Origin: an uncultured Spirochaetota bacterium
Lineage (GTDB): Bacteria > Spirochaetota > Brevinematia > Brevinematales > JAOACQ01
Assembly: GCA_963768055.1 (NCBI GenBank)
Contig: CAVYGN010000001.1
Coordinates: 1,600,001-1,664,000, forward strand
Direction: 5' to 3'
Length of the DNA: 64,000 bases
In this document: positions 5,565 to 36,221 of the stretch, one piece after another
Position numbering within the stretch: position 1 is the stretch's first letter
Layout: every line of letters starts with the position of its first letter
The notes under the pieces: generated by a model
Databases searched by the model: none
The model's input: only the letters and a program-made list of their open reading frames with translations
Told to the model about the DNA's origin: nothing
Made by a program: the position numbers and the translations under genes

Positions 5565-7361
5565 TTACCAGGGCTTGAATATGATCCCCCGTTCAAACAT
5601 CAATTCCCTTATTTTATCGACTCCGGTTTCGGTTTCAGCGGTAAGCAGCACCAGATCCGTAGCAATATCCGTATCCGGTTCACCGACCCAGATAATATGT
5701 ATAAGATTTTCATCAAGCACTGTTTTCATGATATCCAGATCGTCCTGCGTCAGCCCGACTGCCGTTATCACGAGTATGATCCCCGCATCCATCATAAGAA
5801 AGGCGACTTCAGCGAGCCGGCGAATGTGCTCTTCCCGGTATTTTTTATGGTCGTGGTTGAGATCCGCATCGACGCCGTAAAGAATATTGCCGATGCCGAG
5901 GAAATATATGAATTTCCCTTCCTGGAACAAGATTTCCTCAAGCCTCTTGGCCAGTTTTTTTTTGCCGACGTCTTTATCCCCGGTGATCACCAGCAATGCG
6001 GATTTCTGGCTGTACCGTTCAGCTCTCTGTACTGAAGGTATGGCGCTCTTTTCCCATTTGTAATTGCGGAGTATTACTTTTTCCCGGACTTCGCTCTGCT
6101 CGTCAGGCAGGCTTTCACGGACTATGCCGCCGCCGGAAATTTCATATGCCTCGACAATAACGAATCTCCCCGTTTCAGGAATATCATTATTCAGGTCGAA
6201 TGCTATAGGCGTTCTCAGGCGGATAATGCATTCCCCCACATCATTCCGGTTGACTTTTTCGGCATTTTCAACGAATGAAAGCGTGGAAGCGTCGATCAGG
6301 CGGGGTATCGACTCGATGCGGCATGGCACTTTCGCCGTCCCCAGCTTGAACAGGTATTCCTTGTTTTTCTCAAGCGGATTTCTTCCCAGCCAGAAGAGAT
6401 TTACTCGCAAGCGCATAGAGACCAGGGGTTTTACCTCGCGGATTTTCGCAATAATTTCACCCCGGGTTACATAAATTTGTTCATCCATTGTAAAACCCGC
6501 TGCATAGCCTGCTTCCAATCCCGCTATACTGGAGCTGCCGGATGCTTCAATGGATTTTATCCTGTTTTTCTTTCCGGACGGATAAAAAACAATTTCATCC
6601 CCTGTCTGTATGCTTCCGGTCTCGATCGTTCCCGCCACGATTCTGCGATTATCTCCGTATTTCGTGAATTTATAGACATCCTGGACCGGCATCCGGAAAG
6701 GCTTGTTTGACCTGTCCTTTTCATTTTGAAAGGAATCCAGAGAATTAAGCAATGTAAGGCCCTCATACCAGGGCATATTAAATCCGGCTGACGCGATATT
6801 ATCGCCGCAAAAACCGCTGACCGGAATAAAGGAATTTGGCCGGATCGATATGCTTTTTAAAAATTCCGAAAATTCTCTTTCAATTTCCCCGAATTTATCC
6901 CGGCTGTAGCCGGCAAGATCCATTTTGTTGACAAGGACGATAACCTGGCGGATGCCGAGCATTGATAAAAGATATCCATGCCTCCTGGAATTTTCTTTAA
7001 TTCCTTCCGCGGCATCGATTACGAGAAGCGCCGCTTCGGCCCTTGAAGCGCCGGTGACCATATTCTTTAAAAATTCGATATGGCCCGGGGCATCGAGAAT
7101 TATATAATTTCTTTTTTCTGTTTTAAAAAAAACACGCGCAGTATCTATGGTTATCCCCTGCGCCTGCTCGTCTTTCAAAGCATCGATCAAAAAAGCGTAT
7201 TCAAACGGTTTTGAATTTCTCTCGCAGTTTGCCCGGACCTGTTCGAGCTTTCCCTGCGGAAGCGAATGAGTGTCCGCCAGAAGTCGGCCGACAATGGTGC
7301 TTTTTCCATGGTCGACATGACCGACGATCACAATATTCATGTTTTCTTTTTCATCTGTCAT
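5565..7361 (-). CDS. cysN: Sulfate adenylyltransferase large (GTPase) subunit with degenerate C-terminal APS-kinase-like domain
   Basis: [25 protein letters not shown]-motifs; the C-terminal domain resembles CysC but with altered P-loop; adjacent to cysD. Confidence 0.93.
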
Positions 7362-7378
7362 TATAGATCTCCTGATCC

Positions 7379-8260
7379 TTACATGTAGCCGTCTCGCCTC
7401 AGCGTCTCGAGGCCGCCGCAGTCATCCCTGTCCTGGGCGCGTCCCGAACGTTCGGCAATATCGGCAAACTTCCCGGTTTTTAATTCGGCAATAATTTCAG
7501 CCGGATTCCTTGCATCCGAATCGACCGGAAAAGTGCAGGGATAGCAGCCGAGCGAACGGTAGCGTTTTCCTTCCCCCTGGTTATAATAGAGTGAAACCGT
7601 TGGTATTTTTTCCCTTTCGATGTATTCCCAGATATTGACCTCCGTCCAATCCAATAAAGGATGAATTCGAAGGTGCGTTCCCGGGGCAAAGTCCGTCTTG
7701 AACTGGTTCCAGAATTCGGGGGGCTGGTCCCCGATCTTCCAGATATTTTCCTTATCGCGGGGTGAAAAATAACGTTCTTTCGACCGGGATCCTTCCTCAT
7801 CGGCCCGCACACCGACAATTACTCCCGTAAAAGCCCCCGAACCTTTTTCCAGGTCGTACCGCCCTGTCTGCAGGTTCAGCCTGTAGCGTTTCCCGCTTCC
7901 ATTGAGAGTATTCCGGAGGGCTGCCGTTTTAAGATTACTGCAGCAGGTGATCCTGTCGACATTTCCGTCGGGAAAGGTTTCTTTTTTCATCAGGGCTTCT
8001 TCATTTTTACCGAAAATCATTGTGAGCCGGTATTCCATTGCCAATCTATCGCGGTATGCGATCATTTCAGGGATTTTATAAGTCGTGTCGATATGAACAA
8101 GGGGAAACGGCACATGCCCGAAAAACGCTTTCCTTGTAAGCCATAAAAGCGTTGTGCTGTCTTTACCGATAGACCAGAGCATGCAGAGATTCTTAAAATT
8201 CGCATAGGCTTCCCGGATAATATGTATGCTTAAATTTTCCAATTTATCCAGATGATTCAT
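7379..8260 (-). CDS. cysD: Sulfate adenylyltransferase small subunit
   Basis: WSIGKDS PP-loop, [29 protein letters not shown] motifs. Confidence 0.95.
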
Positions 8261-8881
8261 TCATGGCTCCTGTTTTTCCATAAAACTTAAAAAATGATTT
8301 TTTTCAAGATAACTAAAAATCAAATCCGACGCGTTTTCCGGCGTTTCGCTGCCCGAATCTATGATGATCTCGGGTTTTTTGGGTTCTTCATATGGGTCTG
8401 TAATTCCTGTGAAATTTTTGAGCTCGCCTTTCCTCGCTTTTTTATACAACCCTTTAGGGTCCCTCGATTCGCAAATATCGAGTGAACATTTTACATAGAT
8501 TTCAATAAATTCGCCATTTTCGACCAGTTTTCTCACTTTATCGCGGTCTTCCCGGTAAGGGGAAATAAAAGCGGTTATTACTATTATACCGGCGTCGATA
8601 AAAAGTTTCGACACTTCGCCGATCCGCCTGATATTTTCTTCGCGGTTTAACTGATCGAAGCCCAGGTCCCGGTTTAGCCCGCACCGGATGTTGTCTCCGT
8701 CGAGGAGATATGTATGGATTCCGCGTTTGTACAATTTCCGGTCTAAAAACCGGGCTATAGTCGACTTGCCGCTGGCGGACAGGCCGGTAAACCATATGAT
8801 CGCGGAAGAATGGCCGTTCAGCCTGCGTCTCTCTTCTTTCACAACGGATAACTGATAAGGATATAAATTGTTTTCAGACAT
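8261..8881 (-). CDS. cysC: Adenylyl-sulfate (APS) kinase
   Basis: WFTGLSASGKST, LDGDNIR, FISPY, RDPKGLY, NFTGITDPYE motifs. Confidence 0.97.
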   Translation of the reverse strand: MSENNLYPYQLSVVKEERRRLNGHSSAIIWFTGLSASGKSTIARFLDRKLYKRGIHTYLLDGDNIRCGLNRDLGFDQLNREENIRRIGEVSKLFIDAGIIVITAFISPYREDRDKVRKLVENGEFIEIYVKCSLDICESRDPKGLYKKARKGELKNFTGITDPYEEPKKPEIIIDSGSETPENASDLIFSYLEKNHFLSFMEKQEP

Positions 8882-8882
8882 T

Positions 8883-9647
8883 TCAGCTTATCACTCCTTT
8901 AATATACTCTTTTGTCAATTCCTGTTTCGGGTTCTCGAAAATCTGCCCGGCTGTACCGGATTCCACAAGCTCGCCCATATACATAAAGATGACATGATCC
9001 GCTATTCTTTTTGCCTGCCTCAAAATATGTGTTACGAATACAACGGTGTAGTTTTCTTTCAATTTAAGGAGGGTTTGTTCGATATAACGGCTTGAAAAAG
9101 GGTCCAGAGATGATGTGGGTTCGTCCCCCAGAATAATTTCGGGTTCTACGGCAAGACCCCTGGCCAGGCAAAGCCTCTGCTGCTGGCCCAGAGAAAGTCT
9201 TGACGCGGGTGAGTGGAGCCTTTCTTTTACCTCTTCCCAGAGATTTACCATTCTCAGATATTTTTCAACTATTCCATTAACGGATTTTCTGCCTCTCAAG
9301 CCATGGATTCTCGGGCCGTAGGCTATATTATCAAATATCGACATCGGCAATGGCGAGGGTTTTTGAAGTAAAAGTCCCATTTTTTTCCTGATCCCGGTAA
9401 CATCCGCATGGGGGTCAAGAACATTTTCACCGTCGACAATGATTTCCCCGTTTATTGTAACATTTTCTTCCAGATCGATCAAACGGTTAAATGATTTAAG
9501 CAGGGTGGATTTACCGCAGCCGGAAGGACCGATGATCACTGTCACCTTCTTATCCGGAATAACGAGAGATATGTCTTTCAACGCTTCAATTTTGCCGAAT
9601 TTAACGTTCAAATGGTTTACTATAATATGGGATCGATTTTCAGTCAT
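8883..9647 (-). CDS. pstB: PstB-like oxyanion ABC transporter ATPase
   Basis: GPSGCGKST, LSLGQQQRLCLAR, DEPTSSLDP, T.EYI.G C-terminus typical of PstB. Confidence 0.88.
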   Translation of the reverse strand: MTENRSHIIVNHLNVKFGKIEALKDISLVIPDKKVTVIIGPSGCGKSTLLKSFNRLIDLEENVTINGEIIVDGENVLDPHADVTGIRKKMGLLLQKPSPLPMSIFDNIAYGPRIHGLRGRKSVNGIVEKYLRMVNLWEEVKERLHSPASRLSLGQQQRLCLARGLAVEPEIILGDEPTSSLDPFSSRYIEQTLLKLKENYTVVFVTHILRQAKRIADHVIFMYMGELVESGTAGQIFENPKQELTKEYIKGVIS

Positions 9648-9659
9648 ATACTCCGCACC

Positions 9660-10511
9660 TTATTTGATCGTATTTTTAGCCAATTTCAAATTTAGAATTC
9701 GTATAATTACATTGATAATAAATATAAAAACGGTAAGTATTAAAGCGGCTGAATAAGCCCTGTTCTGAACCTCCGGGTATGGCGTCCCCAATTGGAAAAA
9801 TATTGCAAGCGGCAGGGTGGCGGCAGGCGAAAAAAGGGAATCCGGAATGTTATCCGTAAATCCGGCCGTATATAAAACTGAAGCTGCGTCTCCCACTCCC
9901 CTTCCGAAAGCGATTATTATAGCTGTAAGCAGCCCCGGCAAAGCCTGCCTTATAACAACCCTGAAAGCCGTTTCGAACCGGGTCGCGCCCAGGGCGAAGG
10001 ATGCACAGGTTAATTCCTTTGAAACAAGGGCAACGACTTCATCAAGCATCCTGGCGAGGATAGGCAGGACTAAAAGAGCTACGGTTACTATTCCTCCCAG
10101 AAGGGAGACTTTCAAACCCAGATAAAGCATTAAAGAAAATCCGAAAGCCCCGTAAACAATGGATGGAATACCCCATAAAACATCGAAGCAAAAGCGGGTT
10201 ATTTGAACAAGCAATGAATTTTTTTTTGCGAAAATATGGAGGTAAAGGATTATAGGCAGGGAAATCAGCAATCCAAGAATTACTCCACCCAATCCGATAT
10301 AAGCCGATCCTATTATCGCATTTAAAATCCCGCCCTTCCTGCCGGTATAAAAGCCTCCCTGCGGTGTTTTAAGGATCATATCCCAGTTAAAACCCTTGAT
10401 CCCTTTTGACAGTATTGTAAAAAGGATCATGCAGAGAAGTGCAAGAATGATAAAAGAACAAAACCGCATTAAAAAAACAAAAATCCTTTCTTCCAATTTT
10501 CTCATGTTCAT
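9660..10511 (-). CDS. pstA: PstA-like ABC permease
   Basis: GGILNAIIGS, GIPSIVYG, ALGATRFET, GRGVGDAA; six TM helices. Confidence 0.88.
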   Translation of the reverse strand: MNMRKLEERIFVFLMRFCSFIILALLCMILFTILSKGIKGFNWDMILKTPQGGFYTGRKGGILNAIIGSAYIGLGGVILGLLISLPIILYLHIFAKKNSLLVQITRFCFDVLWGIPSIVYGAFGFSLMLYLGLKVSLLGGIVTVALLVLPILARMLDEVVALVSKELTCASFALGATRFETAFRVVIRQALPGLLTAIIIAFGRGVGDAASVLYTAGFTDNIPDSLFSPAATLPLAIFFQLGTPYPEVQNRAYSAALILTVFIFIINVIIRILNLKLAKNTIK

Positions 10512-11422
10512 AAACGGAGCCCTTTTTCAATTCTTAAAAGCATCCATCGGGAAACAACGTTGAAAAAGATCACTACGGCAAGTAAAATTAGCGCCGCCAG
10601 CATCAGTGCGGAATCGAAAAGCGGGATTGAAAGCATCTCCCCGTAACTGTTTGCAATCAGTGCGGGCAGGGGATATACGGGATCGAATATCGAATGGGGG
10701 ATCTTTGCCACATTTCCGGCAACCATTAAAACAGCCATAGTCTCGCCGAAAGCCCTCGACATTGCAAGCACAACTCCGGCCACTATGCCCGGAAAATTTT
10801 TCCTCAGGATTACGTTTTTAACTGTTTCCCATTTGGTAGCGCCGACGGCTAATGAAGCCATCCTGATTTCTACCGGCACTGTGCGGAATATTTCAACGAA
10901 TATATTCACCATTACAGGTATGATCATCACCGCAAGCACGATAGACGCCGATAACATGGAGTATCCGGAAACATTGATCCCCAGATAAGGGGCTATAGTC
11001 TCTTTGACCCATGGAACGATCACTAAGACCCCCCACAATCCGAAAACGACCGATGGAATTCCCGCTAAAAGATCGACCATAGGAATGAAAAAATTCCGCA
11101 ATGTTTTGGATGCATATTCCGAAAGATATATCCCGGTTAAAAGGCATACCGGAACCGCCAGAATAAGGGCGCCGAAAGTTACCCAGACAGTGCCGGTTAT
11201 AAAAGGCAGAAAACCGAACTTTCCTTTCATCGGATGCCAATTTTCAGAAAAGAACAATTTTGAAAGAGGATTTTCACGCAGGATCGGCAGCGATTTTACT
11301 AAAAGCAGTATAAATATGAAAATTAACAGGAACCAGCAAAAAAAGACCAGGAGCCTTGCGCTGTTTTCAAATAAACGGTCTTTTAAAATCCTGAAGTATG
11401 GCGCCATTTTCAAGCCCGTCAA
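10508..11422 (-). CDS. pstC: PstC-like ABC permease
   Basis: FGFLPFITGT, LAGIPSVVFGLWG, SRAFGETMAVLMVAGN motifs; an alternative start is the ATG at 11407. Confidence 0.9.
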   Translation of the reverse strand: MTGLKMAPYFRILKDRLFENSARLLVFFCWFLLIFIFILLLVKSLPILRENPLSKLFFSENWHPMKGKFGFLPFITGTVWVTFGALILAVPVCLLTGIYLSEYASKTLRNFFIPMVDLLAGIPSVVFGLWGVLVIVPWVKETIAPYLGINVSGYSMLSASIVLAVMIIPVMVNIFVEIFRTVPVEIRMASLAVGATKWETVKNVILRKNFPGIVAGVVLAMSRAFGETMAVLMVAGNVAKIPHSIFDPVYPLPALIANSYGEMLSIPLFDSALMLAALILLAVVIFFNVVSRWMLLRIEKGLRL

Positions 11423-12363
11423 AAGCCGATTTTCTTCATCTGTTCCTGAATCCTGGATTCCTCAATAGGAACGTAACCGGTTTCTTCGATATACTTCCTT
11501 CCCTGTGTCAGCGCCCACTTTACGAATTCTATAACAATCTTTTTGTGGGGCCTGCCCTTGAAGGCAAAATACAGGTCCCGGGCCGGAGGCGAAGGATATT
11601 TGTTTTCAGAGATCGCTTTTGTCAATTCAAAAAGACTATGATAAAAATCCTCATCCGCATCGATTTTCCCGTTCCCGTTTATATCGATCGGCAGTACGGC
11701 TATTCCCGGGATCGGCTGCCCTGTTCTGAAGTCGTAAGCAAAACTTATATTGTTATACCCGATGCCGAAGGTGTCTTTTTTTACCGCTTCAACAACCCCC
11801 GGATCGCCGAAAACCCCGACCCCTTTCAAATCCTCCTGATTTTTTCCAAGGTATGCCGCCCAGGTGCTGGCTGCTCCGCATGAATCGGAACGGGTATAAA
11901 TATTGATAGTGTCGTTTTTATTGTATCTGTAAAGTTCTTCCCAGCGCGACACCGAACCTTCTATGAAAATTTGTTTGAACTGCTTCTTTTTTAAACCCGA
12001 TTCCCGGATTTTCCCCAGCAACGGATTATTCACATTTACCGTACATACAACCGCATCGCGGGCCATGGCGATCCAGGTTATACCCTTATCTTCTTCGATC
12101 TTCGAAATTTCCCTGGATATGCTCCCGATGTCCGCCATTCCGGTAAGCGTATCCACCATACCCTTTCCTGCCCCGGCCGCCGATATATCGAATTTTACAT
12201 CCGGGTGGATTTTTTTGAATTCTTCCGCCCATTTGACTTCCATAGGGTACAGGGCAAAAGCCCCGGAAATTGTGATTGTTTTTTCCGGAGAACCGCCGCT
12301 GCCGCACGAACATACAATCATTGCAAAAAATGTAAGGAATACGGCCCGATAAAATTTACTCAT
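11419..12363 (-). CDS. PstS-family substrate-binding lipoprotein with atypical ligand residues (possibly sulfate-binding)
   Basis: PstS-fold motifs recognisable (ISGAFALYP, AGAGKG, DIGSISR, TRSDSCGAA, GIGY, YP). ATG at 12363 follows a GAGG RBS; lipoprotein-type signal ending in IVCSC. Confidence 0.85.
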   Translation of the reverse strand: MSKFYRAVFLTFFAMIVCSCGSGGSPEKTITISGAFALYPMEVKWAEEFKKIHPDVKFDISAAGAGKGMVDTLTGMADIGSISREISKIEEDKGITWIAMARDAVVCTVNVNNPLLGKIRESGLKKKQFKQIFIEGSVSRWEELYRYNKNDTINIYTRSDSCGAASTWAAYLGKNQEDLKGVGVFGDPGVVEAVKKDTFGIGYNNISFAYDFRTGQPIPGIAVLPIDINGNGKIDADEDFYHSLFELTKAISENKYPSPPARDLYFAFKGRPHKKIVIEFVKWALTQGRKYIEETGYVPIEESRIQEQMKKIGF

Positions 12364-12388
12364 ATATACCTCAAAAATTAAGATTATG

Positions 12389-12793
12389 CTAGATAAAATC
12401 ATGAAGGCTTAAATTCTCCAGCCGGGCAGATATATAATCCCTGATATCTTTCATAACTGCAAGGACTTTTTTTTCATTCTCAATCGGGGTATGCTCAAAA
12501 AAATAGGTGCTGACGGACTCGGTCGGCGCTAGTGCGCCGTCCATTAACCTGATAACCTGGGCCAGTGAAATATCCTTCGGATCTCTGGCAAGCTTATAGC
12601 CGCCGCTGGAACCCCTTTTGGTCTTTATGATTGAATTTTGCTTTAACAGCAGGAATAACTGCTCCAGGTATTTTTTTGAAATATGGTATTGCCGGCAGAT
12701 AGCCTCGATTTTGACATATTCATGTTCGTCTTGATTGCGCGCTATATACAGCAGGGCCAGCAGGGAATATTCGCTTTTTGTCGTAAGCTTCAT
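12389..12793 (-). CDS. Rrf2-family transcriptional regulator (CymR-like, no Fe-S cysteine triad)
   Basis: MKLTTKSEY, YLEQLF, RGSSGGYKLAR, DISLAQVIRLMDG; lacks the IscR-type C-terminal cysteines. Confidence 0.93.
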   Translation of the reverse strand: MKLTTKSEYSLLALLYIARNQDEHEYVKIEAICRQYHISKKYLEQLFLLLKQNSIIKTKRGSSGGYKLARDPKDISLAQVIRLMDGALAPTESVSTYFFEHTPIENEKKVLAVMKDIRDYISARLENLSLHDFI

Positions 12794-12820
12794 ACCTTGT
12801 CCGTATACAAGTTTAGTTAT

Positions 12821-12849
12821 AGTATAGGCAAGGTATAGAAGCCTGTCAA
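12821..12849 (-). promoter_or_regulatory. Sigma70-type promoter for the rrf2-pst-cys operon
   Basis: Minus strand TTGACA (12849-12844), 17 nt, TATACT (12826-12821); overlapped by an imperfect inverted repeat at 12792-12836. Confidence 0.7.
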
Positions 12850-12869: not shown

Positions 12870-13520
12870 TCAGCCTATCCAGAGTCCTTCTATGCGAACC
12901 TGAAATCCGTCTTTGATTTTGAATAAAGCGTTAACAAGGCCGCAATGACGCCACTGGAGCATGCAATATCGCGGAAGGAAATAATACCTTTTCCCGATTT
13001 CCAGATTTACCCGGCTGTTCCTTACAATCCCTTCGTAAGCGGTCGTATTATAATACCCGATGTTGATGCCTCTTTCCCTGGCCTGTAGCGGCCCGGTTAC
13101 ATTCCAGACAACCGTTCCGTTAAAATAATCGGGTTCATCGACGATAACACCCGCATGAGTGACCGGGCATCCGCAGGAAATCCAGGCGGGTCTTCCGTAA
13201 ATTACATCCCCTCTTTTTAGCTTCAATTTTTCCACATTTGTAGGATTAAAAAGGATGATCGTTTCTCTCGGGCCAAGATCCTCTTTAAAGGTCTCCAGAA
13301 CAAAATCGTATTCCCGTTCCAGATTATCTTTCCAGCTTATGTTATTTAAAGATTCCTCAATCCGGCCGGTTCTGTCCGATTTTTCTTCATTAAATATGCA
13401 TCTTTCAAGTAATTCCGAATTATTCGAAGCGGAATCAGCCAATTCATTACAGGTTTTAAATCCGCAAATTCCGCAGTTTTTCCCCGGCAGTTTGAATTCA
13501 CTGTTTTGATCCATATTCAT
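12870..13520 (-). CDS. Uncharacterised Fe-S-binding protein
   Basis: N-terminal LPGxNCGxCGFxTC...C motif like the RnfB/CdhE FeS domain; further SCGCP and CMLQWRHCG cysteines. Confidence 0.8.
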   Translation of the reverse strand: MNMDQNSEFKLPGKNCGICGFKTCNELADSASNNSELLERCIFNEEKSDRTGRIEESLNNISWKDNLEREYDFVLETFKEDLGPRETIILFNPTNVEKLKLKRGDVIYGRPAWISCGCPVTHAGVIVDEPDYFNGTVVWNVTGPLQARERGINIGYYNTTAYEGIVRNSRVNLEIGKRYYFLPRYCMLQWRHCGLVNALFKIKDGFQVRIEGLWIG

Positions 13521-14215
13521 TCCCCTCTATAAAAAATATTCGAATCCAGCGGCCTCAGGACTCCATGATGCGCCTCTTTGCCGATCTCTTTCTTGCCTAC
13601 GCATATCGTGCAGGTGCCTACCGGAGGATTGCCTTTAAGCAGAATCGGATAGTGGAGGTTTTCAACATCCATGATCTTTTGCGAAACATAACCGATATTG
13701 ATTCCATGAAGGGCGTCGCTTTCTATTACAGGGACCGAGGCGGTTTCCTCTATTGTAGCGCGAAATACTTCACGCTCCGCCTGTGAAACCAGATCTATCT
13801 TTGTAACGACGGCAATATCGGCCAGGGATAGCATGGGACCGATCTTCCTCGGCAGGTTCATGCCGCTGGTCGCTTCTATGACGACAATTCCGAGGGCATG
13901 GTCGATATAAGGCGAACAGCGCAGGCACAATCCGGCCGTTTCCACGATCAGGATATCGGAAGACTCATTGACAGCCCATTTGATAGCGTCGCCCAGAACA
14001 ATGACATTGCAGTGGTCGGGGCAAAGATCGCCGGAATATACCTTCTTTGTCGGGATTCCGAATTCCTGATGGATAATAGAATCTTCATCCGCAAATTGCA
14101 CGTCTATTTTAAGATAACTGACCCTGAGATTTTCTTTCTGCAATTTTTTAATAACCTGTTTGATGACGGTTGTTTTACCGCTGGTAGGCGGCCCTGCGAA
14201 AATAGCTGCTTTCAT
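13517..14215 (-). CDS. HypB/UreG-like (G3E) GTPase
   Basis: GPPTSGKT P-loop, LCPDHC, ETAGLCLRC, TKID G4 motif, C-terminal CTIC. Confidence 0.85.
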   Translation of the reverse strand: MKAAIFAGPPTSGKTTVIKQVIKKLQKENLRVSYLKIDVQFADEDSIIHQEFGIPTKKVYSGDLCPDHCNVIVLGDAIKWAVNESSDILIVETAGLCLRCSPYIDHALGIVVIEATSGMNLPRKIGPMLSLADIAVVTKIDLVSQAEREVFRATIEETASVPVIESDALHGINIGYVSQKIMDVENLHYPILLKGNPPVGTCTICVGKKEIGKEAHHGVLRPLDSNIFYRGE

Positions 14216-15036
14216 TGTATGTTTTCCCCCTTTGACATACTATATCCGAATGCTATGAGCCTCTCATTCAGCATATCTTCAGTCAATCTTTCTCCATTGC
14301 GGATCTGTTTTCGGAAATATAGTATAATATCGTCCAGTTTTTTGATCTCTTCCGCAACCCTGAGTTCTTCATCATGGGCCATTATCAGCTGCTGCATAGC
14401 GCCGTTTTTCATAACGACACGGTAATCCGAAAGCAGGGCTATTCTCGGGTCATGCGTGACAAAAATAAATATTTTTTCATACTTTTTAAGAAGCTCAAGG
14501 GCCTTGGTCCGGTGTATTCCCGCATTCTCGATTTCATCCAGCAGTATGATCGGAGAATTACCTATTATTACGGCATCCGCGATGAGAAGGGCCCGGGTCT
14601 GGCCTCCCGAAAGCTCCGTCATTTTATTGTGGACCTCTATGGGTTCTCCGGTCAGCTGGTTTGAAAAATCCAGTGTTTCCTCGATTATCGAATCCGGCCT
14701 CAATGTCTTCCTTATCCGCGCATGTTTCGTTAAAAAGTCGCTGACATTCAAATCTGAAAGAAAATTAGTATGCTGGGTTATGAGGGCGATCGGATGGAGG
14801 GAAGGTTCAAGCGTTCTGCTGTTCGCTGTTCTCTCGCCGTTGATAAAAATCTTCCGTCGCGTCGGTGTGTTGTCGTTTGCAAAGAGTTCGATGTCGTTGA
14901 TCAAGGTGGTTTTTCCCGACCCCGTAGGTCCGACAATACTGATAATGTCGCCCATTTTTAAAGTGATTTCAGCGATCTTGTCCGGTTCGCCTTTTTTGCC
15001 GATTCCGCCGATAATCGTAAGCGATTGAATTTCCAT
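14212..15036 (-). CDS. Stand-alone ABC ATPase (no adjacent permease)
   Basis: GPTGSGKT, LSGGQ, ILLDE, THD motifs; 4-bp overlap with the GTPase gene. Confidence 0.85.
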   Translation of the reverse strand: MEIQSLTIIGGIGKKGEPDKIAEITLKMGDIISIVGPTGSGKTTLINDIELFANDNTPTRRKIFINGERTANSRTLEPSLHPIALITQHTNFLSDLNVSDFLTKHARIRKTLRPDSIIEETLDFSNQLTGEPIEVHNKMTELSGGQTRALLIADAVIIGNSPIILLDEIENAGIHRTKALELLKKYEKIFIFVTHDPRIALLSDYRVVMKNGAMQQLIMAHDEELRVAEEIKKLDDIILYFRKQIRNGERLTEDMLNERLIAFGYSMSKGENIQ

Positions 15037-15080
15037 AGTTATCTCCCCTATATTAAAATATTCAATACTGAAATTTTATT

Positions 15081-16238
15081 TCACCTCGACCATATCGAAT
15101 TCAGGTTTTTTATGCTTTTTAAAAGAATATCAAGAAAACGGTCAATATCTTCCTCCGTTGTCTGCCTCCCAAGAGTAATGCGCAATGCCCCGATAGATTG
15201 AACAGGATTGCGGCCGATAGCTGCCAGCACATGAGATATTTTTTTTGAATTTGACGAACATGCTGAACCTGTTGAAACGCATATTCCTTCCCGGTCCAAC
15301 GCCATGAGCAAATTCGGGGCCTGTCCTTCGAGGCCGTTAAACCCTATATTAACATTATTGGGAAGGCGGATATCCCTATGCCCGTTCAGGTAAGCCGATG
15401 AAATATTTTCAATAACGGTTCCGATAATTCTATCTCTCAGCGCCTGGAGCCGCCCGGACTCATCCTCTAAACCTTCTAAACACAGCCGGACGGCTTTTGC
15501 AAAACCGACAATTCCGGGAACATTTTCAGTCGATGAGCGCATCCCGTATTCCTGCCCTCCGCCATGCTGCCATGGCGTCAATTTTATTCCATTCCGGATA
15601 TATAATGCGCCTATTCCCTTCGGACCATAAATTTTATGGGAATTGATCGTCGCCAGATCGACATTAAATTTTTCAACGTCGAAAGGAATTTTGCCGAACG
15701 ATTGGCATGCATCGGTATGAAAACAGACTCTGTTTTCCCGGCAGAACCTGCCTATTATTTCAATCGGTTGTATGACGCCGATTTCGTTATTGGCATGCAT
15801 AACGGACACCAAAATGGTTTCCGGAAGAAAACTGTTTTTCAACCGGTCGGTATCGATAAGCCCGTCCGAATCGACCGGGATAAAAGAAATATTAAAACCC
15901 TGGGTCTGGAGCCATTTGCATGAATTAATAATGCAATCGTGTTCGATCGCAGAAACAATTATATGATTCCCTCTTGCCCTGTTGGCGAAGGCATATCCTT
16001 TCAGTGCCAGATTATTGGATTCCGTCCCTCCCGAGGTAAATACCAATTCTTCAGCATAAGCGCTAATAGAGGAAGCTATCTCCATCCTGGCATTTTTTAC
16101 CGCTTCATGCGCTTCGAATCCTTTACTATGAAGGCTGGAGGGGTTTCCAAAACCTTCTGAAAAATACGGCATCATAGCCTGAAGGACCCTGCCGTCCATA
16201 GGAGTTGTAGCCGCGTTATCCAGATAAATTGCTTTCAT
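15081..16238 (-). CDS. iscS: Cysteine desulfurase, IscS/NifS group
   Basis: YLDNAATT, FTSGGTESNN, NNEIG, HTDACQ, SHKIYGPKG, STGSACSS (catalytic Cys). Confidence 0.93.
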   Translation of the reverse strand: MKAIYLDNAATTPMDGRVLQAMMPYFSEGFGNPSSLHSKGFEAHEAVKNARMEIASSISAYAEELVFTSGGTESNNLALKGYAFANRARGNHIIVSAIEHDCIINSCKWLQTQGFNISFIPVDSDGLIDTDRLKNSFLPETILVSVMHANNEIGVIQPIEIIGRFCRENRVCFHTDACQSFGKIPFDVEKFNVDLATINSHKIYGPKGIGALYIRNGIKLTPWQHGGGQEYGMRSSTENVPGIVGFAKAVRLCLEGLEDESGRLQALRDRIIGTVIENISSAYLNGHRDIRLPNNVNIGFNGLEGQAPNLLMALDREGICVSTGSACSSNSKKISHVLAAIGRNPVQSIGALRITLGRQTTEEDIDRFLDILLKSIKNLNSIWSR

Positions 16239-16436: not shown

Positions 16437-17480
16437 ATGGAACAAAAATTAGATAAAAAATGTATGTTCGTCCTCGGCATGCACCGGAGCGGGACTTCGC
16501 TTGTAATGGGCGCATTAAATAAAATGGGCGTTTATCTGGGCAATGATTTGTTAAAACCTACTGCGGACAATCCGAAAGGTTATTTTGAAAATCAAAATCT
16601 GGTCGATATCGATGAGAAAATATTATCCTGTTATAATTCATCATGGGATGATTTATTGATCCTCGATAACGATTTTGCAAAAAATGAAAAGTTCGAACAG
16701 ATATTGATCGATATAAAACAATTTATTGAAAAGGAATTTGCCGGCATTCCTGTTTTCGGATTGAAGGATCCCCGATTGTGCAGGCTTCTTCCATTTTGGG
16801 ACAGTGTTTTGACAAAAATGAAAATACAGGAATATTTTATAATACCCCTGCGCAATCCCCTTGAAATAGCCGCCTCCCTTGAAAATAGAGATGGATTCAG
16901 CCTGGAAAAATCTTTTATTCTCTGGATGAATCACATGTTTGAAGCTGAATTATATACAAGAGGAAAGAACCGTATTTTTATAAATTATGACTACCTGCTT
17001 AAGCAGCCGGAAACCGCTGTCGAATCTATTATAAAAAAATTAAATATCGATTATTTAACGACTTACCGGCAAATGAAATCCGAATTGGATGATTTATTTG
17101 ATCCGGACCTGAAACATTTTAATATGCCGGATATAAGGGGCGATAAACGGCTTATTGAACTTGTCCATGAATTTCATATTTCTTTACTTAATTTGTCGCA
17201 CGACGATATGTCCGAAAAGGAATTGATTAAAATAAATGAACAAAGGGAAAGATATTATAAACAGCACCGTTTTTTTTATAACAGGGATTTGGTAGATTTA
17301 TTGAACTTATTGAAAGAAACCAAGATCATTAATCATAATTTGACTGTTGAATTATGGAATACAAACAGCCTGTTGCAGGAAAAAGAAAAAATAATAGATG
17401 AAATTTATAATTCAAGAGGCTGGAAATTAATTACAAAATACCGGGAAATAAAGCTAAAGATTTTTCCGAAACATGGTTAA
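16437..17480 (+). CDS. Sulfotransferase-family protein with C-terminal coiled coil
   Basis: LGMHRSGTS PAPS-binding loop, NPKGYFE, LKDPRL, RNPLE; helical tail ending in NSRGWKL. Confidence 0.85.
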   Translation: MEQKLDKKCMFVLGMHRSGTSLVMGALNKMGVYLGNDLLKPTADNPKGYFENQNLVDIDEKILSCYNSSWDDLLILDNDFAKNEKFEQILIDIKQFIEKEFAGIPVFGLKDPRLCRLLPFWDSVLTKMKIQEYFIIPLRNPLEIAASLENRDGFSLEKSFILWMNHMFEAELYTRGKNRIFINYDYLLKQPETAVESIIKKLNIDYLTTYRQMKSELDDLFDPDLKHFNMPDIRGDKRLIELVHEFHISLLNLSHDDMSEKELIKINEQRERYYKQHRFFYNRDLVDLLNLLKETKIINHNLTVELWNTNSLLQEKEKIIDEIYNSRGWKLITKYREIKLKIFPKHG

Positions 17481-17678: not shown

Positions 17679-18458
17679 ATGTTTAAGGAAATTCAGGAAG
17701 CGTTCAAATACAGATTTGTCATACAAAACTATGTTTATACCAATCTCAAACTGAAATACAGAAGATCCCTGCTGGGTTACTTATGGGCCGTCATTGCTCC
17801 CATGTTCAGATATCTGGTAATCGGCATAGTATTTTATTATATCTCCAAAATGAGGGACCCGCATTATTTCGGATTTATGTTTATGGGATCGATATTTTAC
17901 AGTTATATGACCGTAGTGCTTCTGGCCAGTACTAATGTTTTCATTCAAAACGAAATGTATATTAAAAAAATTTACGTGCCTAAACTTGTATTCGTGCTGA
18001 ACATTATTTTTTATGAAATGGTTAATTTCGCATTGGTTTTGCTCGGCATTATACTTCTGGGCCTTATTTTAGGCCAGCTGCAATTATCCTTTTATATGTT
18101 TATGATGATCTATGCCGTAATAATCACAACCTTTTTTTTAATAGGATGGGCCGCCATATTGGGGGTTATTACCATCTATTTCAGGGATTTGACGCATATG
18201 CTGGACATACTCCTTCAGGCCGTTTATTTCGCGACCCCGATCCTTTATTCGGTAGCGATTTTACCTAAAACATTTGCCGGCCTTGTCAAGCTCAACCCTT
18301 TTTATTATTTTGTGGAATTATTCAGGGTGCCCGTGCTCCAGCAAAAGTTTCCCGATCCCGACATCCTGCTGGTAACATTCGGCCTGTCGGTTCTGTCGTT
18401 CTTTTTAGGACTGATGATATTGAAAAAGTTTAACAATAGAATTGTATTCAAATTATAA
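17679..18458 (+). CDS. wzm: Polysaccharide ABC exporter permease
   Basis: KYRRSLLGYLW, FRDL, YFATPILY, LNPF motifs; six TM helices. Confidence 0.92.
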   Translation: MFKEIQEAFKYRFVIQNYVYTNLKLKYRRSLLGYLWAVIAPMFRYLVIGIVFYYISKMRDPHYFGFMFMGSIFYSYMTVVLLASTNVFIQNEMYIKKIYVPKLVFVLNIIFYEMVNFALVLLGIILLGLILGQLQLSFYMFMMIYAVIITTFFLIGWAAILGVITIYFRDLTHMLDILLQAVYFATPILYSVAILPKTFAGLVKLNPFYYFVELFRVPVLQQKFPDPDILLVTFGLSVLSFFLGLMILKKFNNRIVFKL

Positions 18459-18470
18459 GGACTTGAAAAT

Positions 18471-19274
18471 ATGAACCCTAAAGATTGTAAAATAAAGTTT
18501 GAAAACGTTTCACTTACATATGACCTCTACTATGATAAAACAACATCTCTTAAAGAGTTCCTCATCAATTTAGTTGTTAGAAGAAAATATGTTGAAAAAA
18601 AATTAGGCAAGTTGAACGCATTGAACAAGATCAACCTGGAAATCGAGCATGGGCAAAGACTCGGCGTAATCGGCTTGAACGGGGCCGGCAAGAGCACCCT
18701 TCTCAAAGTAATAGCCGGACTTTTAAAACCCACAGAAGGCAATATTGAAATTTTCGGAAATGTACAGCCTTTAATAGAAGTTGGGGCCGGTTTTAACATG
18801 GAATTCAGCGGAAGGGAGAATATTTATTTTAACGGAGCGATGCTCGGGTTCTCGAAAAAGGAAATAAAGGAAAAAGAGGAAGAGATCATAAAATTTTCAG
18901 AACTGGATAGATTCATCGATGTGCCGGTTAAATATTATTCATCTGGAATGATCTTGAGACTGGCTTTTACGATCGCGACCATAATTCATCCCGAGATATT
19001 GGTTCTGGATGAAATAATATCAGCGGGAGATATCGAGTTTATCCAGAAAGCCAAGGAAAGGATCAATAAACTGCTTAGTTCCGCAAAGATACTTGTGATT
19101 GTAAGCCATGACCTGGGTTTGATAAAGTCGTTAGCCTTACGGACAATCGTCCTGGAACATGGAGAGATAATTTTTAACGGTGAGACGAAAGAGGCGATTG
19201 AATTTTATCATGATAAGGCATTAAGAGATATGGAATCAAGAAAAATCAAGGAATCCCAGAATGCGGGGAAATGA
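18471..19274 (+). CDS. wzt: Polysaccharide ABC exporter ATPase (no C-terminal carbohydrate-binding domain)
   Basis: GLNGAGKST, SGRENI, PVKYYSSGM, LDE, VSHD; only 267 aa. Confidence 0.93.
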   Translation: MNPKDCKIKFENVSLTYDLYYDKTTSLKEFLINLVVRRKYVEKKLGKLNALNKINLEIEHGQRLGVIGLNGAGKSTLLKVIAGLLKPTEGNIEIFGNVQPLIEVGAGFNMEFSGRENIYFNGAMLGFSKKEIKEKEEEIIKFSELDRFIDVPVKYYSSGMILRLAFTIATIIHPEILVLDEIISAGDIEFIQKAKERINKLLSSAKILVIVSHDLGLIKSLALRTIVLEHGEIIFNGETKEAIEFYHDKALRDMESRKIKESQNAGK

Positions 19275-33912: not shown

Positions 33913-34659
33913 TCAAATAGTTTTCCCTTCCTTCCGGAAAGATTTTCCATCTTTGGATTTTACCAGGATTTTAATTGAGCCTGAAACAAGGCGGTCAAGC
34001 ATAGCCCCTCCAATCACAGGATCAGGGAAGATTGCCAGCCAGTCCTCCGGAGGCCGGTTGCTTGTCAGAATAATGGACCTGTTTCCAAGCCTTTCATCGA
34101 CAATCCGGTATAGGTATTCCGTTTCTTCATTGTCGAGTTTTTTAAATCCGAAATCGTCTATTATCAGGAGGTCTGTTTTAATACACTTTCTGAATAGAGT
34201 ATTCTTAAACATAAGCTTTTCGCTTTTCAAGTCTTCAAGAAGAACCGCGGCTTTCTTGAAAAGAACTGTGTTTCCTCTTCTGCAGGCCTCATGGCCGACT
34301 GATTTTGCAATGCATGTTTTACCTATGCCGGGAGGCCCGGCGATGACAACAAACTGTCTCATATCCATGAAACGGCAGGACGCGATTTCACGAATAAGCC
34401 TTGAAGGGATAGCGCTCTCATTGAAATTAAAATCAAACCCCTCGAAAGTGTTTTCCTGGCCGAACTTCGCTTCTCTCAGCCTCTTTTTGAGCATGTTATT
34501 ATCCCTCTGGCATAATTCATCCTGAACTAACAAAGAGAAAAATTCTCCATAGTCCAGGTTTGATTCTTGAGCCTCCCTGATCCGCATAGGAAGGTTGAAT
34601 AGCATCCCAGGAAGCTTTAACCTCCTTAAGTTTGCCTCAAGCTGATTCTGATGTTCCAT
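33913..34659 (-). CDS. istB: IS21 helper AAA+ ATPase
   Basis: LKLPGM, GPPGIGKT, LLIIDDFG, LTSNRP, LDRL motifs. Confidence 0.95.
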   Translation of the reverse strand: MEHQNQLEANLRRLKLPGMLFNLPMRIREAQESNLDYGEFFSLLVQDELCQRDNNMLKKRLREAKFGQENTFEGFDFNFNESAIPSRLIREIASCRFMDMRQFVVIAGPPGIGKTCIAKSVGHEACRRGNTVLFKKAAVLLEDLKSEKLMFKNTLFRKCIKTDLLIIDDFGFKKLDNEETEYLYRIVDERLGNRSIILTSNRPPEDWLAIFPDPVIGGAMLDRLVSGSIKILVKSKDGKSFRKEGKTI

Positions 34660-34677
34660 ATTTCCTCCTCATTATCT

Positions 34678-36221
34678 CTATTGAAAGTAATAGCTGCCGT
34701 CCCTGGTCATTTCAGACCCTTCTTCTGAAATTTCAAACAGGGTGTCCTGTTTATCCTTTCCTTCATTTTCCATCCAGCTTTTGAATAGTTTGGGATCGGT
34801 TATTTTTGCCGATATTGCTCTTTCACAGACTTTATTAAAGTATTCTTCTTTCGAGAATGTTTCCATTACACTTAAGAACCCCAGGGCCCTCCGGCAATTC
34901 AGATTAGCATGAACAGCAAGGATTTGAAAGATCAACTGGTATGCGGCTTCTCCGTATTTCCTCGACTGGTCTAATAAATACTTGGGGTATCCCCCGGATA
35001 GCATCTCCCTTGTATTCTCCGGAAAATCAGTCTTTTCATATGCTGCATGTCCTCTTGGTACGACAAATTCCCGGATAAGTTTGTACTGGAAGAAGATCTT
35101 CACTAAATTGCCGGTTCTCCTGACAAAGACTTCCTCTCCACGATACCTGGGAGGCAGGGAATACCTCTTTTTCTCGAACTGGACAAATTGGTCCGGGTGT
35201 ACCTTGGCCTTTTTCCATACGGGAGTCTTAAACCTTTCTTCAGGAAGCTTCTTAAGCAGGGGCTTCTCTATCGTTTCAAATACCTCTATTGGTTTCAAAC
35301 CTGTTGTTCCATGGTTCCTCATCCCGTATTCATACCTGCACCATTCCAGAGCTTTGATGTTTAATTCCTTTAACGAGGCTCCGGGATTAAGGGCTTTAAG
35401 TTTTCTGAAAAGCTCTCTGGCAACAGGGACCATTCTCTCTATCTTGGCTTTATCCTTTGGTTTCCTTACCCTGCAAGGATCAAGAAAAGTATTGTAATAC
35501 TCCGCATAATCAGCATATGCCTGATTATATTTAGGATCGTAAAGGTCCGGTGATATGATGCCGGTTTTCAGATTGTCCAGGGATATTCTTACAGGCACAC
35601 CGCCGTAAAACTCCAGCATATCCACATTGCTTTCAACGAATGATTCCTGGTTTTGTGAATAGACATATTGAACAAATGGCAGCCTTGAACTCGACATTAT
35701 TCCGATAAAAGACTGCACGATCTTGTTGTGCCCCAGGTATTCCATTGTGCCGGCCCTGCCGTAGTCAAGCTGGATCTCCTGACCAGGGTTAGTTTCAATC
35801 CGGATGGTTTCCTTTAATTCTTTAGCTGTAAGGCCGCTCTTTATCGAGAATCTCTTGAAACTTGTATAGCTTATGTCCAGATTATGCCTTATACAGACAA
35901 CTTCAAAGGCTGTCTTGGGTTTCATTCCGTTTTTCGGGTCATTTATGAGCCCGTACAGCTCATCTTTATATCGTTCAAGTATGCTTGTGCCTTATTTTCA
36001 TTTTTTGGAGGCCCTACAAAGGGGCGTTTCAGATGGAATTCTTCCCGGCTTATTGTTTCTCCCGCCTTTTCAAAGCCGTAATCGATAATTTTTTGAATCG
36101 CTAGTCGGACTGTTTTCCTATCCCTGTTTTCCTGTTCGGAAATTTCACTTATGCTTTGATCGGCTTTCCATCGTCTGTAAATGTCATAGTAATCCTGTTC
36201 GTTCATAAATCTGTACCCCAT
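34678..36221 (-). pseudogene. istA: IS21 transposase, frameshifted near 35985
   Basis: The N-terminal HTH ORF (36221-35943) and the DDE ORF (QLDYG, DNLKT, KAKIER; 35925-34678) are in different frames. Adding one base at CAA/AGC gives the continuous AQSILERYKDELYGLINDPKNGMKPK. Confidence 0.88.

Follow-up and report, generated by a model that had tools for sequence, protein, structure and literature searches.

A Pst-Type ABC Transporter Cassette in a Sulfate-Activation Operon of an Uncultured Spirochaetota Bacterium Is a Candidate Sulfate Importer

Among described systems, the phosphate importer PstSCAB of E. coli (PDB 9K3S/9K3X; PstS 1IXH family) and the Ser-type phosphate-binding proteins (PBP-1 from C. 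perfringens, 4Q8R/4GD5; Synechocystis Sll0540, 9L8J, and SphX) come closest to the one analyzed here, a four-gene ATP-binding cassette (ABC) transporter which, in an uncultured Spirochaetota bacterium, is encoded together with enzymes of sulfate activation. The locus lies in a stretch of 64,000 nucleotides (positions 1,600,001 to 1,664,000 of contig CAVYGN010000001.1, assembly GCA_963768055.1), hereafter the window. In E. coli PstS the phosphate ligands are Thr10, Ser38, Asp56, Arg135, Ser139, and Thr141; the pocket of the sulfate-binding protein Sbp, described by Pflugrath and Quiocho, presents main-chain NH donors and no proton acceptor. For PBP-1, the available part of the structural report describes phosphate contacts from the main-chain NH groups of Thr12, Ser13, Ser41, Gly130, and Thr131, hydroxyl ligands from Ser11, Thr12, Ser41, Ser59, Ser129, and Thr131, and a contribution from Arg125; the phosphate proton is probably accepted by Ser13, and Ser59 occupies the place of E. 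coli Asp56 (PMC5381212). PstS proteins of the Ser type do bind phosphate, though less selectively, according to the accessible portions of two accounts (PMC5381212; PMC13614923). The available text of a review distinguishes five sulfate-transporter families (SulT, SulP, DASS, CysP/PiT, and CysZ) and makes no mention there of a Pst type (PMC5840216). Papers on anaerobic methanotrophic (ANME) archaea and on a sulfate-assimilating methanogen name, in the parts available, only putative transporters and leave the uptake step vague (PMC6286981; PMC10322725). Full-text searches, which did not cover subscription journals, turned up no account of a sulfate importer of Pst type.

A preliminary description of this DNA placed a complete pstSCAB set between an Rrf2 regulator and cysC-cysD-cysN in one tightly packed unit, and gene order and spacing are as it claimed. 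Open reading frames (ORFs) with their translations gave the gene order in the window, and families were assigned from Pfam and NCBIfam profile scores relative to model cut-offs. On the minus strand, eight ORFs follow one another in tandem between 12793 and 5565 (Rrf2-pstS-like-pstC-pstA-pstB-cysC-cysD-cysN), with 4-bp overlaps or gaps of 0–25 bp between adjoining genes; a single base (8882) separates pstB from cysC, and none separates cysC from cysD.

12389..12793, minus strand: Rrf2-family transcriptional regulator, 134 residues (PF02082, 102 bits; TIGR00738, 111 bits, cut-off 73.3)
11419..12402, minus strand: PstS-like binding lipoprotein whose anion pocket is altered, 327-residue ORF (PF12849, PBP_like_2, 98.7 bits)
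10508..11422, minus strand: PstC-type permease, 304 residues (TIGR02138, 276.3 bits, cut-off 196.45)
9660..10511, minus strand: PstA-type permease, 283 residues (TIGR00974, 199 bits, cut-off 193.45)
8883..9647, minus strand: PstB-type ABC ATPase, 254 residues (TIGR00972, 328.7 bits, a near miss against the cut-off of 343.2)
8261..8881, minus strand: CysC, adenylyl-sulfate kinase, 206 residues (PF01583, 235.5 bits; NF003013, 284.7 against 163)
7379..8260, minus strand: CysD, sulfate adenylyltransferase small subunit, 293 residues (NF003587, 336.5 bits against 195)
5565..7361, minus strand: CysN, sulfate adenylyltransferase GTPase subunit, 598 residues (TIGR02034, 339.4 against 336.1)

CysC, CysD, and CysN all score above their own model cut-offs. 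The true start of the PstS-like ORF is likely at 12363, which gives a 314-residue form (P0002).

The cassette resembles E. coli PstSCAB in its four components, their S-C-A-B order, and the PstS fold, and its PstC- and PstA-type subunits pass the equivalog cut-offs, whereas the binding protein scores below both PstS models (TIGR02136, 103.1 against 206.6; TIGR00975, 65.7 against 205). An AlphaFold model computed from 23 sequences has a mean predicted local distance difference test score (pLDDT) of 87.8, and in a Foldseek comparison with the PDB every row listed to rank 43 is a phosphate-binding protein, at 11–22% identity; as modeled, the scaffold is a PstS fold. The best HMMER matches among solved structures are Ser-type proteins (4GD5/4Q8R from C. 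perfringens and 9L8J from Synechocystis, E values 6e-18 to 1.5e-12), with which the window protein shares a Ser followed by an Arg at the Asp56 position and an Arg-x-Asp pair in the second lobe. By this comparison the subfamily is derived from Ser-type PstS proteins, although it fits the definition of that type only in part: the Ser at the Asp56 position is present, and the N-terminal Ser-Thr-Ser acceptor loop has become Ala-Phe-Ala.

The binding protein carries the motifs SGAFALYP, AGAGKG, SISRE, YTRSDSCGAA, and PSPPARD, among which those named in the preliminary description (GAFAL, AGAGKG, GSISR, and RSDSCGAA) are all found. HMMER places the motifs as the earlier hand alignment to PstS did, except that the latter was off by one residue at the Asp56 position: Asp56 had been set opposite the Arg of SISR, whereas the PBP-1 structure, as far as its published account is available, puts it opposite the preceding Ser (PMC5381212). 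In the HMMER alignment the PBP-1 positions are occupied by Ala-Phe-Ala, Ala, Ser, Arg, and Cys-Gly-Ala. Thus Ser11, Ser41, and Thr131 are each replaced by Ala, Thr12 by Phe, and Ser129 by Cys, and the proposed proton acceptor Ser13 is also Ala, while the equivalents of Ser59 (S83 in P0002 numbering) and Arg125, the Asp of the Arg-x-Asp pair, and Gly130 are kept. Five of the six hydroxyls are gone and one Ser remains; the replacement of nearly all hydroxyl and carboxyl ligands with retention of the Arg, which the preliminary description had read from the sequence, stands. Neither the E. coli nor the PBP-1 set of phosphate ligands is reproduced. Loss of Asp56 is not diagnostic by itself, because it is common to Ser-type PstS proteins, which do bind phosphate; the diagnostic change, judged from the alignment, is that the five hydroxyl ligands at the other positions have been lost.

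The altered pocket is a property of a large subfamily. A word-indexed homolog search scored 8000 candidates, 7160 of them at E ≤ 1e-5; the 120 homologs listed from these are 48–100% identical to the query, and SGA[FWY]A[LI]YP is present at the N terminus wherever that region is visible. Across an alignment of 23 members (49–80% identical to the window protein), SGA-x-ALYP, GAGKG, S-R, R-x-D-x-x-G-A, and P-x-PPAR are invariant and the pocket Cys nearly so, with Ala in its place in some members (P0064, P0065); the Ser13 position is Ala in all 23. Where PBP-1 has Ser-Thr-Ser, Ser41, Ser129, and Thr131, the subfamily has Ala-Phe/Trp-Ala, Ala, Cys, and Ala, and the Thr12 position is Phe, Trp, or Tyr across its members. 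Ordinary Ser-type signatures (GSTT...SGT) emerge at about 35% identity. An exhaustive HMMER search of representatives at 50% identity recovered 167 clusters at E ≤ 1e-30 and 860 at E ≤ 1e-10. A motif-pattern scan of one genome per species found at least 601 matching stretches, of which at least 595 were confirmed by tblastn, so that the carriers comprise at least 595 species genomes from both bacteria and archaea. By record title, the best 80 of these include Bacteroidales and their relatives, Ignavibacteriales, Aminicenantes, Planctomycetes, Omnitrophota, Chrysiogenales, and others, with ANME-1, ANME-2, Methanoperedens, and a Methanomicrobiales archaeon among the archaea; Anaerophaga thermohalophila DSM 12881 is a carrier named in the record titles. 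Source annotations call the homologs 'phosphate transport system substrate-binding protein', 'PstS family phosphate ABC transporter substrate-binding protein', or 'substrate-binding domain-containing protein', which bears out the expectation that automated pipelines would label them as phosphate transport.

The genome (two contigs, 3.69 Mb, 94.75% complete) encodes a phosphate system of ordinary type elsewhere. A locus on contig 2 contains phoB, an unassigned gene for a 410-residue protein, pstS, pstC, pstA, pstB, and the only phoU of the genome. The PstS of this locus, with the motifs GAGATFPYP, IGSGGG, GASDAP, and HRSDGSGTT, reaches 361 bits on TIGR00975, and its PstB scores 351 on TIGR00972. 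The cassette is accompanied by neither phoU nor phoB, as had been noted: both are missing from the window and stand with the canonical pstSCAB. The window cassette is a paralog of this phosphate system, with identities of 22% (binding protein), 36% (PstC), 31% (PstA), and 41% (PstB). The subfamily DxNGNGKID loop and PSPPAR motif are absent from the canonical PstS; the Ser-type proteins were not aligned in these regions. The loop (PIDxNGNGKIDxDEDFY, residues about 225–241 of P0002) resembles a calcium-binding DxNxNGxID loop.

In the membrane pathway of E. coli PstSCAB, as given in the available part of the structural paper, the anion is coordinated by PstC Arg237 (with Glu241) and PstA Arg220 (PMC12976172), and the equivalents of all three residues are retained in the window permeases. 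The Arg237 position is Arg or Lys in the eight commonest PstC motif variants, which cover 56 of 66 orthologs, and the Arg220 position is Arg in all eight PstA variants listed (49 of 64 orthologs). These arginines are neutral between the substrate readings considered below. The surrounding PstA motif is GRG[IV]GDAAS in the cassette and ARITGETAP in the canonical protein; a Ser130-to-Gly change in PstA was rejected as a mark of the cassette, the canonical PstA of the genome having Gly as well.

With the SulT systems (Sbp/CysP-CysTWA, transporter classification 3.A.1.6) the cassette shares a location among cys genes, a pocket that offers main-chain NH groups and no proton acceptor, and, as proposed, the ATP-driven import of sulfate through a binding protein, but it belongs to another ABC family. 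Its permeases score 41.8 against 246.1 on the CysT model and 25 against 329.1 on the CysW model, its ATPase reaches 133.8 against 342.75 on the model of the sulfate ATPase subfamily, and its binding protein matches PF12849 only and keeps an Arg in the pocket, unlike Sbp; the earlier claim that the system is distinct from Sbp/CysPUWA thus holds. Profile searches of the genome found no SulP (PF00916), Sbp/CysP (TIGR00971), Na_sulph_symp (PF00939), or SBP_bac_11 (PF13531) protein; the CysZ/TSUP and YeeE families were not searched.

We compared the neighborhoods of the cassette at 80 loci, the best 80 of the at least 595 confirmed stretches. ORFs were called up to 10 kb on each side and compared with the window proteins and with canonical PstS, PstB, PhoU, and PhoB; they were then clustered, with representatives matched to Pfam, and Pfam was also run on 62 of 118 unassigned same-strand operon neighbors. 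Genes of PstC, PstA, and PstB type follow the binding protein in 70, 65, and 63 loci, respectively, many loci ending at a contig edge. PhoU adjoins none of the 80, so that the routine phoU linkage which would have spoken for phosphate is not seen, and OmpR-type regulators only 24–35% identical to PhoB occur in seven. The only recurrent metabolic theme among the neighbors is sulfur. CysD and CysN are each encoded in six loci (L050, L051, L069, L071, L079, and L081), a PAPS-reductase-like gene in four (PAPS, 3'-phosphoadenosine 5'-phosphosulfate), a cysteine synthase-like PALP gene in four, and sulfite reductase in two. In an Ignavibacteriales locus (L050) the binding protein and PstCAB are followed by PAPS reductase, CysD, CysN, sulfite reductase, and siroheme synthase (CysG); in an ANME-1 locus (L071) they are followed by CysD and CysN; in a Phycisphaerae locus (L062) ATP sulfurylase (Sat) lies immediately 3' of PstB; and L081 contains thioredoxin and a sulfite reductase-TusA fusion. 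The preliminary description had envisaged an enrichment of homologs with the GA[FW]AL/CGA signature next to cysDNC and Rrf2. A sulfate-activating enzyme lies within 10 kb of the cassette in seven of the 80 loci, spread over several phyla, where chance would give about 0.5%, on the assumption that a genome of about 4 Mb contains a single such locus; an Rrf2 gene precedes the cassette in 18.

Other recurrent partners are of different kinds. In 39 of the 80 loci the cassette directly adjoins a gene for an outer-membrane barrel, Alginate_exp-like and flush with it in 27 and Porin_O_P-like in 12; the window's own locus has none. Such a barrel is probably a dedicated anion porin. LuxR-type response regulators are found in 19 loci and HisKA_3 kinases in 15. 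Also outside the sulfur theme are the VTC-domain gene near L024, the chromate transporter that follows L065, and many unrelated housekeeping genes.

Co-occurrence across genomes points in the same direction as gene order. CysD scores above the model cut-off in 53 of the 80 carrier genomes (30/40 and 23/40 in two halves), and Sat is encoded in 18 of the 27 carriers without CysD (5/10 and 13/17), so that 71 of 80 encode one or the other and are able to activate sulfate. Within an even sample of 301 genomes from the window's phylum, the binding protein is present in 18, CysD in 96, and Sat in 15, the Sat set being disjoint from both the CysD set and the carriers. All 14 sampled genomes with a complete cassette (the window's own counted) encode CysD, in five of them within 6 kb of the cassette (G000, G181, G213, G228, and G297), whereas CysD or Sat is found in 97 of the 283 genomes (34%) without the binding protein. 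The sampled genomes are related and not independent, which overstates the statistics of this phyletic contrast, and we therefore give counts without a test statistic.

All 17 foreign carrier loci of the phylum sample were examined. Genome G070 (89% complete), which lacks CysD, has a 2.1-kb fragment with the binding protein, one PstC/PstA-type gene, and a weak PAPS-reductase-like frame. Three genomes of one genus (G083, G218, and G268; 92–99% complete) have neither CysD nor Sat, even at E ≤ 0.001, and in these the binding-protein gene stands alone, the Rrf2 and PstCAB genes being gone (L108, L109, and L111). The orphans have the same flanking genes as the complete Rrf2-binding protein-PstCAB unit of a congener (L102), and four congeners with CysD retain the full cassette (L100, L102, L104, and L105). 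The window PstC, used as a query, finds orthologs of 56–59% identity beside the binding protein in two CysD-bearing congeners, whereas in the three orphan genomes it finds only canonical PstC at 35–37% identity. Within one genus, then, the permease genes and sulfate activation are jointly present (four genomes) or jointly absent (three). The orphan binding-protein genes are open frames that still fit four of the five motif patterns, the exception being GGAGKG; the proteins may be decaying or re-used, e.g. as sensors.

Two relatives that lack the cassette, one from the same family and one from the same order, have a PiT/PHO4-family permease in the cys operon (L115, 7276–8241; L116, 11087–12058), between a PAPS-reductase-like gene and cysK-cysD-cysN. 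This permease, likely a CysP-type sulfate permease, has no counterpart in the window's genome at E ≤ 1e-5. B. subtilis CysP, described in the available text of the review, is a phosphate-transporter (PiT) homolog recruited for sulfate inside a cys operon (PMC5840216); it is a single-polypeptide secondary carrier, unlike an ABC system with a binding protein. The PiT permeases of the relatives occupy the same slot and represent the same kind of recruitment, and we count them in favor of sulfate as the substrate of the cassette. In a further relative without the cassette (L117), a formate/nitrite-family channel takes this position in the cys operon.

Taken together, these comparisons make it very probable that the cassette is a Pst-derived ABC importer for something other than phosphate. 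We further consider it likely, at a lower level of confidence, that it imports sulfate, alone or with close analogues, sulfate and thiosulfate not being separable by comparisons of this kind; the earlier proposal of a sulfate (or thiosulfate) importer built on the Pst scaffold is supported to this extent, with the substrate deduced rather than observed. The four genes would encode a binding-protein-dependent importer from the Ser-type branch of Pst whose specificity has shifted from phosphate to sulfate. In the proposed mechanism, the lipoprotein would capture sulfate in the cleft between its two lobes, in a pocket that retains main-chain NH donors, one Ser, and the Arg-Asp pair and has lost five Ser/Thr hydroxyls and the acceptor for the proton of HPO4(2-). 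A pocket without a proton-accepting Ser/Thr should prefer a fully ionized tetrahedral oxyanion. The PstC/PstA-type pair, with its two arginines kept, would move the anion inward as the PstB-type subunit hydrolyzes ATP, and in this genome the sulfate would be converted to PAPS by CysDN and CysC, made from the same transcript; in other lineages the cassette heads complete operons for assimilatory sulfate reduction.

Several observations weigh against this assignment. No sulfur genes lie alongside 73 of the 80 cassettes, which makes cys linkage a minority arrangement; at most loci the four-gene cassette either stands by itself or is accompanied by a porin or a two-component system, and the LuxR-type two-component (19 loci) and porin (39 loci) partners are uninformative on the substrate. 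A VTC-domain gene near L024 is a phosphate theme. Nine of the 80 carriers, metagenome-assembled genomes of completeness not given, encode neither CysD nor Sat; they include a 1.0-Mb assembly, several short contigs, and two disrupted-looking cassettes (L035 and L052), yet at least three have intact cassettes (L018, L026, and L065). The genome itself has one PHO4 (PiT-family) and two CitMHS transporters that could carry sulfate. The kept Arg, the one Ser, and the membrane arginines would suit phosphate too, and genuine Ser-type PstS proteins likewise lack Asp56.

E. coli CysPUWA carries thiosulfate, sulfate, and analogues, and the Pst-type cassette might similarly serve other or broader sulfur or selenium oxyanions (thiosulfate, sulfite, or selenate), with sulfate at most one substrate among several. 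The pocket has a near-invariant Cys and a large aromatic residue for which sulfate has no obvious need; a cysteine desulfurase cluster lies upstream in the window and near the cassette in L023, L025, L048, and L097, cysteine synthase genes lie near four of the 80 cassettes, and a chromate transporter follows the cassette in L065. However, the enzymes joined to the cassette (CysDN, Sat, and CysC) act on sulfate itself, complete cassettes track CysD/Sat, which the use of thiosulfate or sulfite does not need, and the pocket Cys is Ala in P0064 and P0065. We regard this explanation as unlikely.

Phosphate as the substrate would imply a second Pst system, of low affinity or different regulation, whose adjacency to cys genes reflects co-regulation or chance. 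PstC and PstA exceed the NCBIfam equivalog cut-offs and PstB nearly does, the membrane arginines are retained, the closest folds are all phosphate-binding proteins, a VTC-domain gene lies near one locus (L024), and Ser-type PstS proteins bind phosphate without Asp56, on the available evidence of two papers (PMC5381212; PMC13614923). Yet all members examined have other residues in place of five of six hydroxyl ligands and of the proposed proton acceptor, PhoU is encoded at none of the 80 loci and the OmpR-type regulators of seven loci are only distantly similar to PhoB, a complete pstSCAB-phoU locus with phoB is encoded elsewhere in the genome, and the co-occurrence and co-loss with CysD would be left unexplained, all of which makes continued phosphate import highly improbable.

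We give still slightly less weight to an importer of organic anions, in which a sulfonate, sulfate-ester, or phosphonate head would be held by the Arg and main-chain NH groups and the organic part by hydrophobic residues: the exchange of Ser/Thr for Ala, Phe/Trp, and Cys does make the pocket more hydrophobic, but desulfonating, sulfatase, and carbon-phosphorus (C-P) lyase genes are absent from the recurrent neighbors, and the enzymes joined to the cassette require inorganic sulfate. The least probable explanation is an importer of molybdate or tungstate, which are likewise fully ionized tetrahedral oxyanions suited to an acceptor-less pocket, and which the methanotrophic and methanogenic archaea among the carriers need and for which the window's own genome lacks a ModA/WtpA-type SBP_bac_11 protein; neither a Mo-cofactor gene nor a Mo/W enzyme is found among the neighbor clusters present in at least three of the 80 loci or among the 62 further neighbors scanned, no dimethyl sulfoxide (DMSO)-reductase-family molybdopterin domain is found in the genome or in four congeners (other Mo/W families were not searched), and the CysD/Sat association would remain without explanation.

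With sulfate preferred on these grounds, we lean toward the broader view that the cassettes make up a sixth prokaryotic sulfate-uptake family, a PhoT-family (Pst-type) ABC importer of at least 595 mostly anaerobic species that is labeled as phosphate transport, feeds both assimilatory sulfate reduction and PAPS-dependent sulfation, and represents one of several rebuilt PstS-like pockets. If so, hundreds of genomes credited with two phosphate pumps would have one for phosphate and one for sulfate, and inferences on nutrient cycling from metagenomes, in which pstS counts serve as markers of phosphate stress, would change. A missing transporter would be supplied in sulfate-assimilating and polysaccharide-sulfating anaerobes, and the subfamily would offer a natural case in which a handful of pocket substitutions turns a highly selective anion receptor toward its main competitor.

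Further PstS-like groups with different pockets surround the subfamily (P0125–P0274), e.g. with SSSTKG, MYSK, and FTRSDLSG, or with GTG-x-G and P-x-x-LCR. Their motifs suggest several uncharacterized anion specificities on the PstS scaffold, and these rebuilt subfamilies may bind yet other anions.

In the window's genome the operon makes PAPS without a detectable route to sulfide. A profile search found no NIR_SIR sulfite reductase, and tblastn with queries from the related loci gave no match in the genome for PAPS reductase, sulfite reductase, Sat, or the PiT type of the relatives' cys operons; a cysteine synthase is present by tblastn. The operon is set in a locus for polysaccharides, where rml genes occur with numerous glycosyltransferases and an ABC-2 exporter (17679–19274); one further gene, next to the exporter, is relevant.

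16437..17480, plus strand: candidate sulfotransferase, 347 residues (weak full-length match to PF13469, Sulfotransfer_3)

This match has an E value of 0.0013 and 19.5 bits against a cut-off of 27, and it covers profile positions 3–213 of 216; the N-terminal 'GMHRSGTS' of the protein and a 'KDPR' further along resemble PAPS-binding loops. This protein might consume the PAPS that the operon provides. Since neither PAPS reductase nor sulfite reductase was found, the PAPS probably donates sulfuryl groups within the polysaccharide locus around the operon, and we infer that it is probably used to sulfate a surface polysaccharide in this genome.

Residues 454–554 of CysN match PF01583 (44.3 bits; profile positions 2–103 of 152) and form a partial C-terminal domain resembling adenylyl-sulfate (APS) kinase. 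This tail coexists with a complete CysC, encoded two places upstream, and may be what is left of a CysNC fusion, either degenerate or with a regulatory role.

The regulator at the head of the operon had been called CymR-like. Its membership of the Rrf2 superfamily stands (111 against 73.3), whereas it is an equivalog of neither CymR (75.5 against 195) nor IscR (77.6 against 207.55). Inspection of the sequence shows a single Cys, and hence the three-Cys cluster site of the IscR type is lacking; CymR is likewise without one. The cassette-linked Rrf2 proteins are heterogeneous, and a sensing mode common to them was dropped from consideration because their Cys content varies from one to eight. A possible control region lies in the 76-bp gap upstream of the Rrf2 gene.

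12792..12849, minus strand: candidate promoter and operator (consensus pattern matches only)

The gap contains a sigma-70-like TTGACA-17-TATACT with 11 of 12 consensus matches and an 8-nt perfect inverted repeat, ATACCTTG/CAAGGTAT, whose arms are 29 nt apart; both are putative elements, proposed as possible on pattern alone. The adjacent cluster-less Rrf2 protein would probably control the operon.

Directly upstream of the Rrf2 gene and co-oriented with it (12870–16238, minus strand) are genes for a NifS-type cysteine desulfurase, a permease-less ABC ATPase, a CobW/HypB-like GTPase, and a PF04060 'FeS' protein. The same four-gene set lies beside the cassette in L023, L025 (there without NifS), L048, and L097, and may be an undescribed module for the maturation of sulfur or metal clusters linked to the importer. 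Further into the polysaccharide region, an IS21-type pair, made up of an IstB-like ATPase and a transposase whose C-terminal domain is of the Mu-transposase kind, is encoded on the minus strand at 33913–35925.

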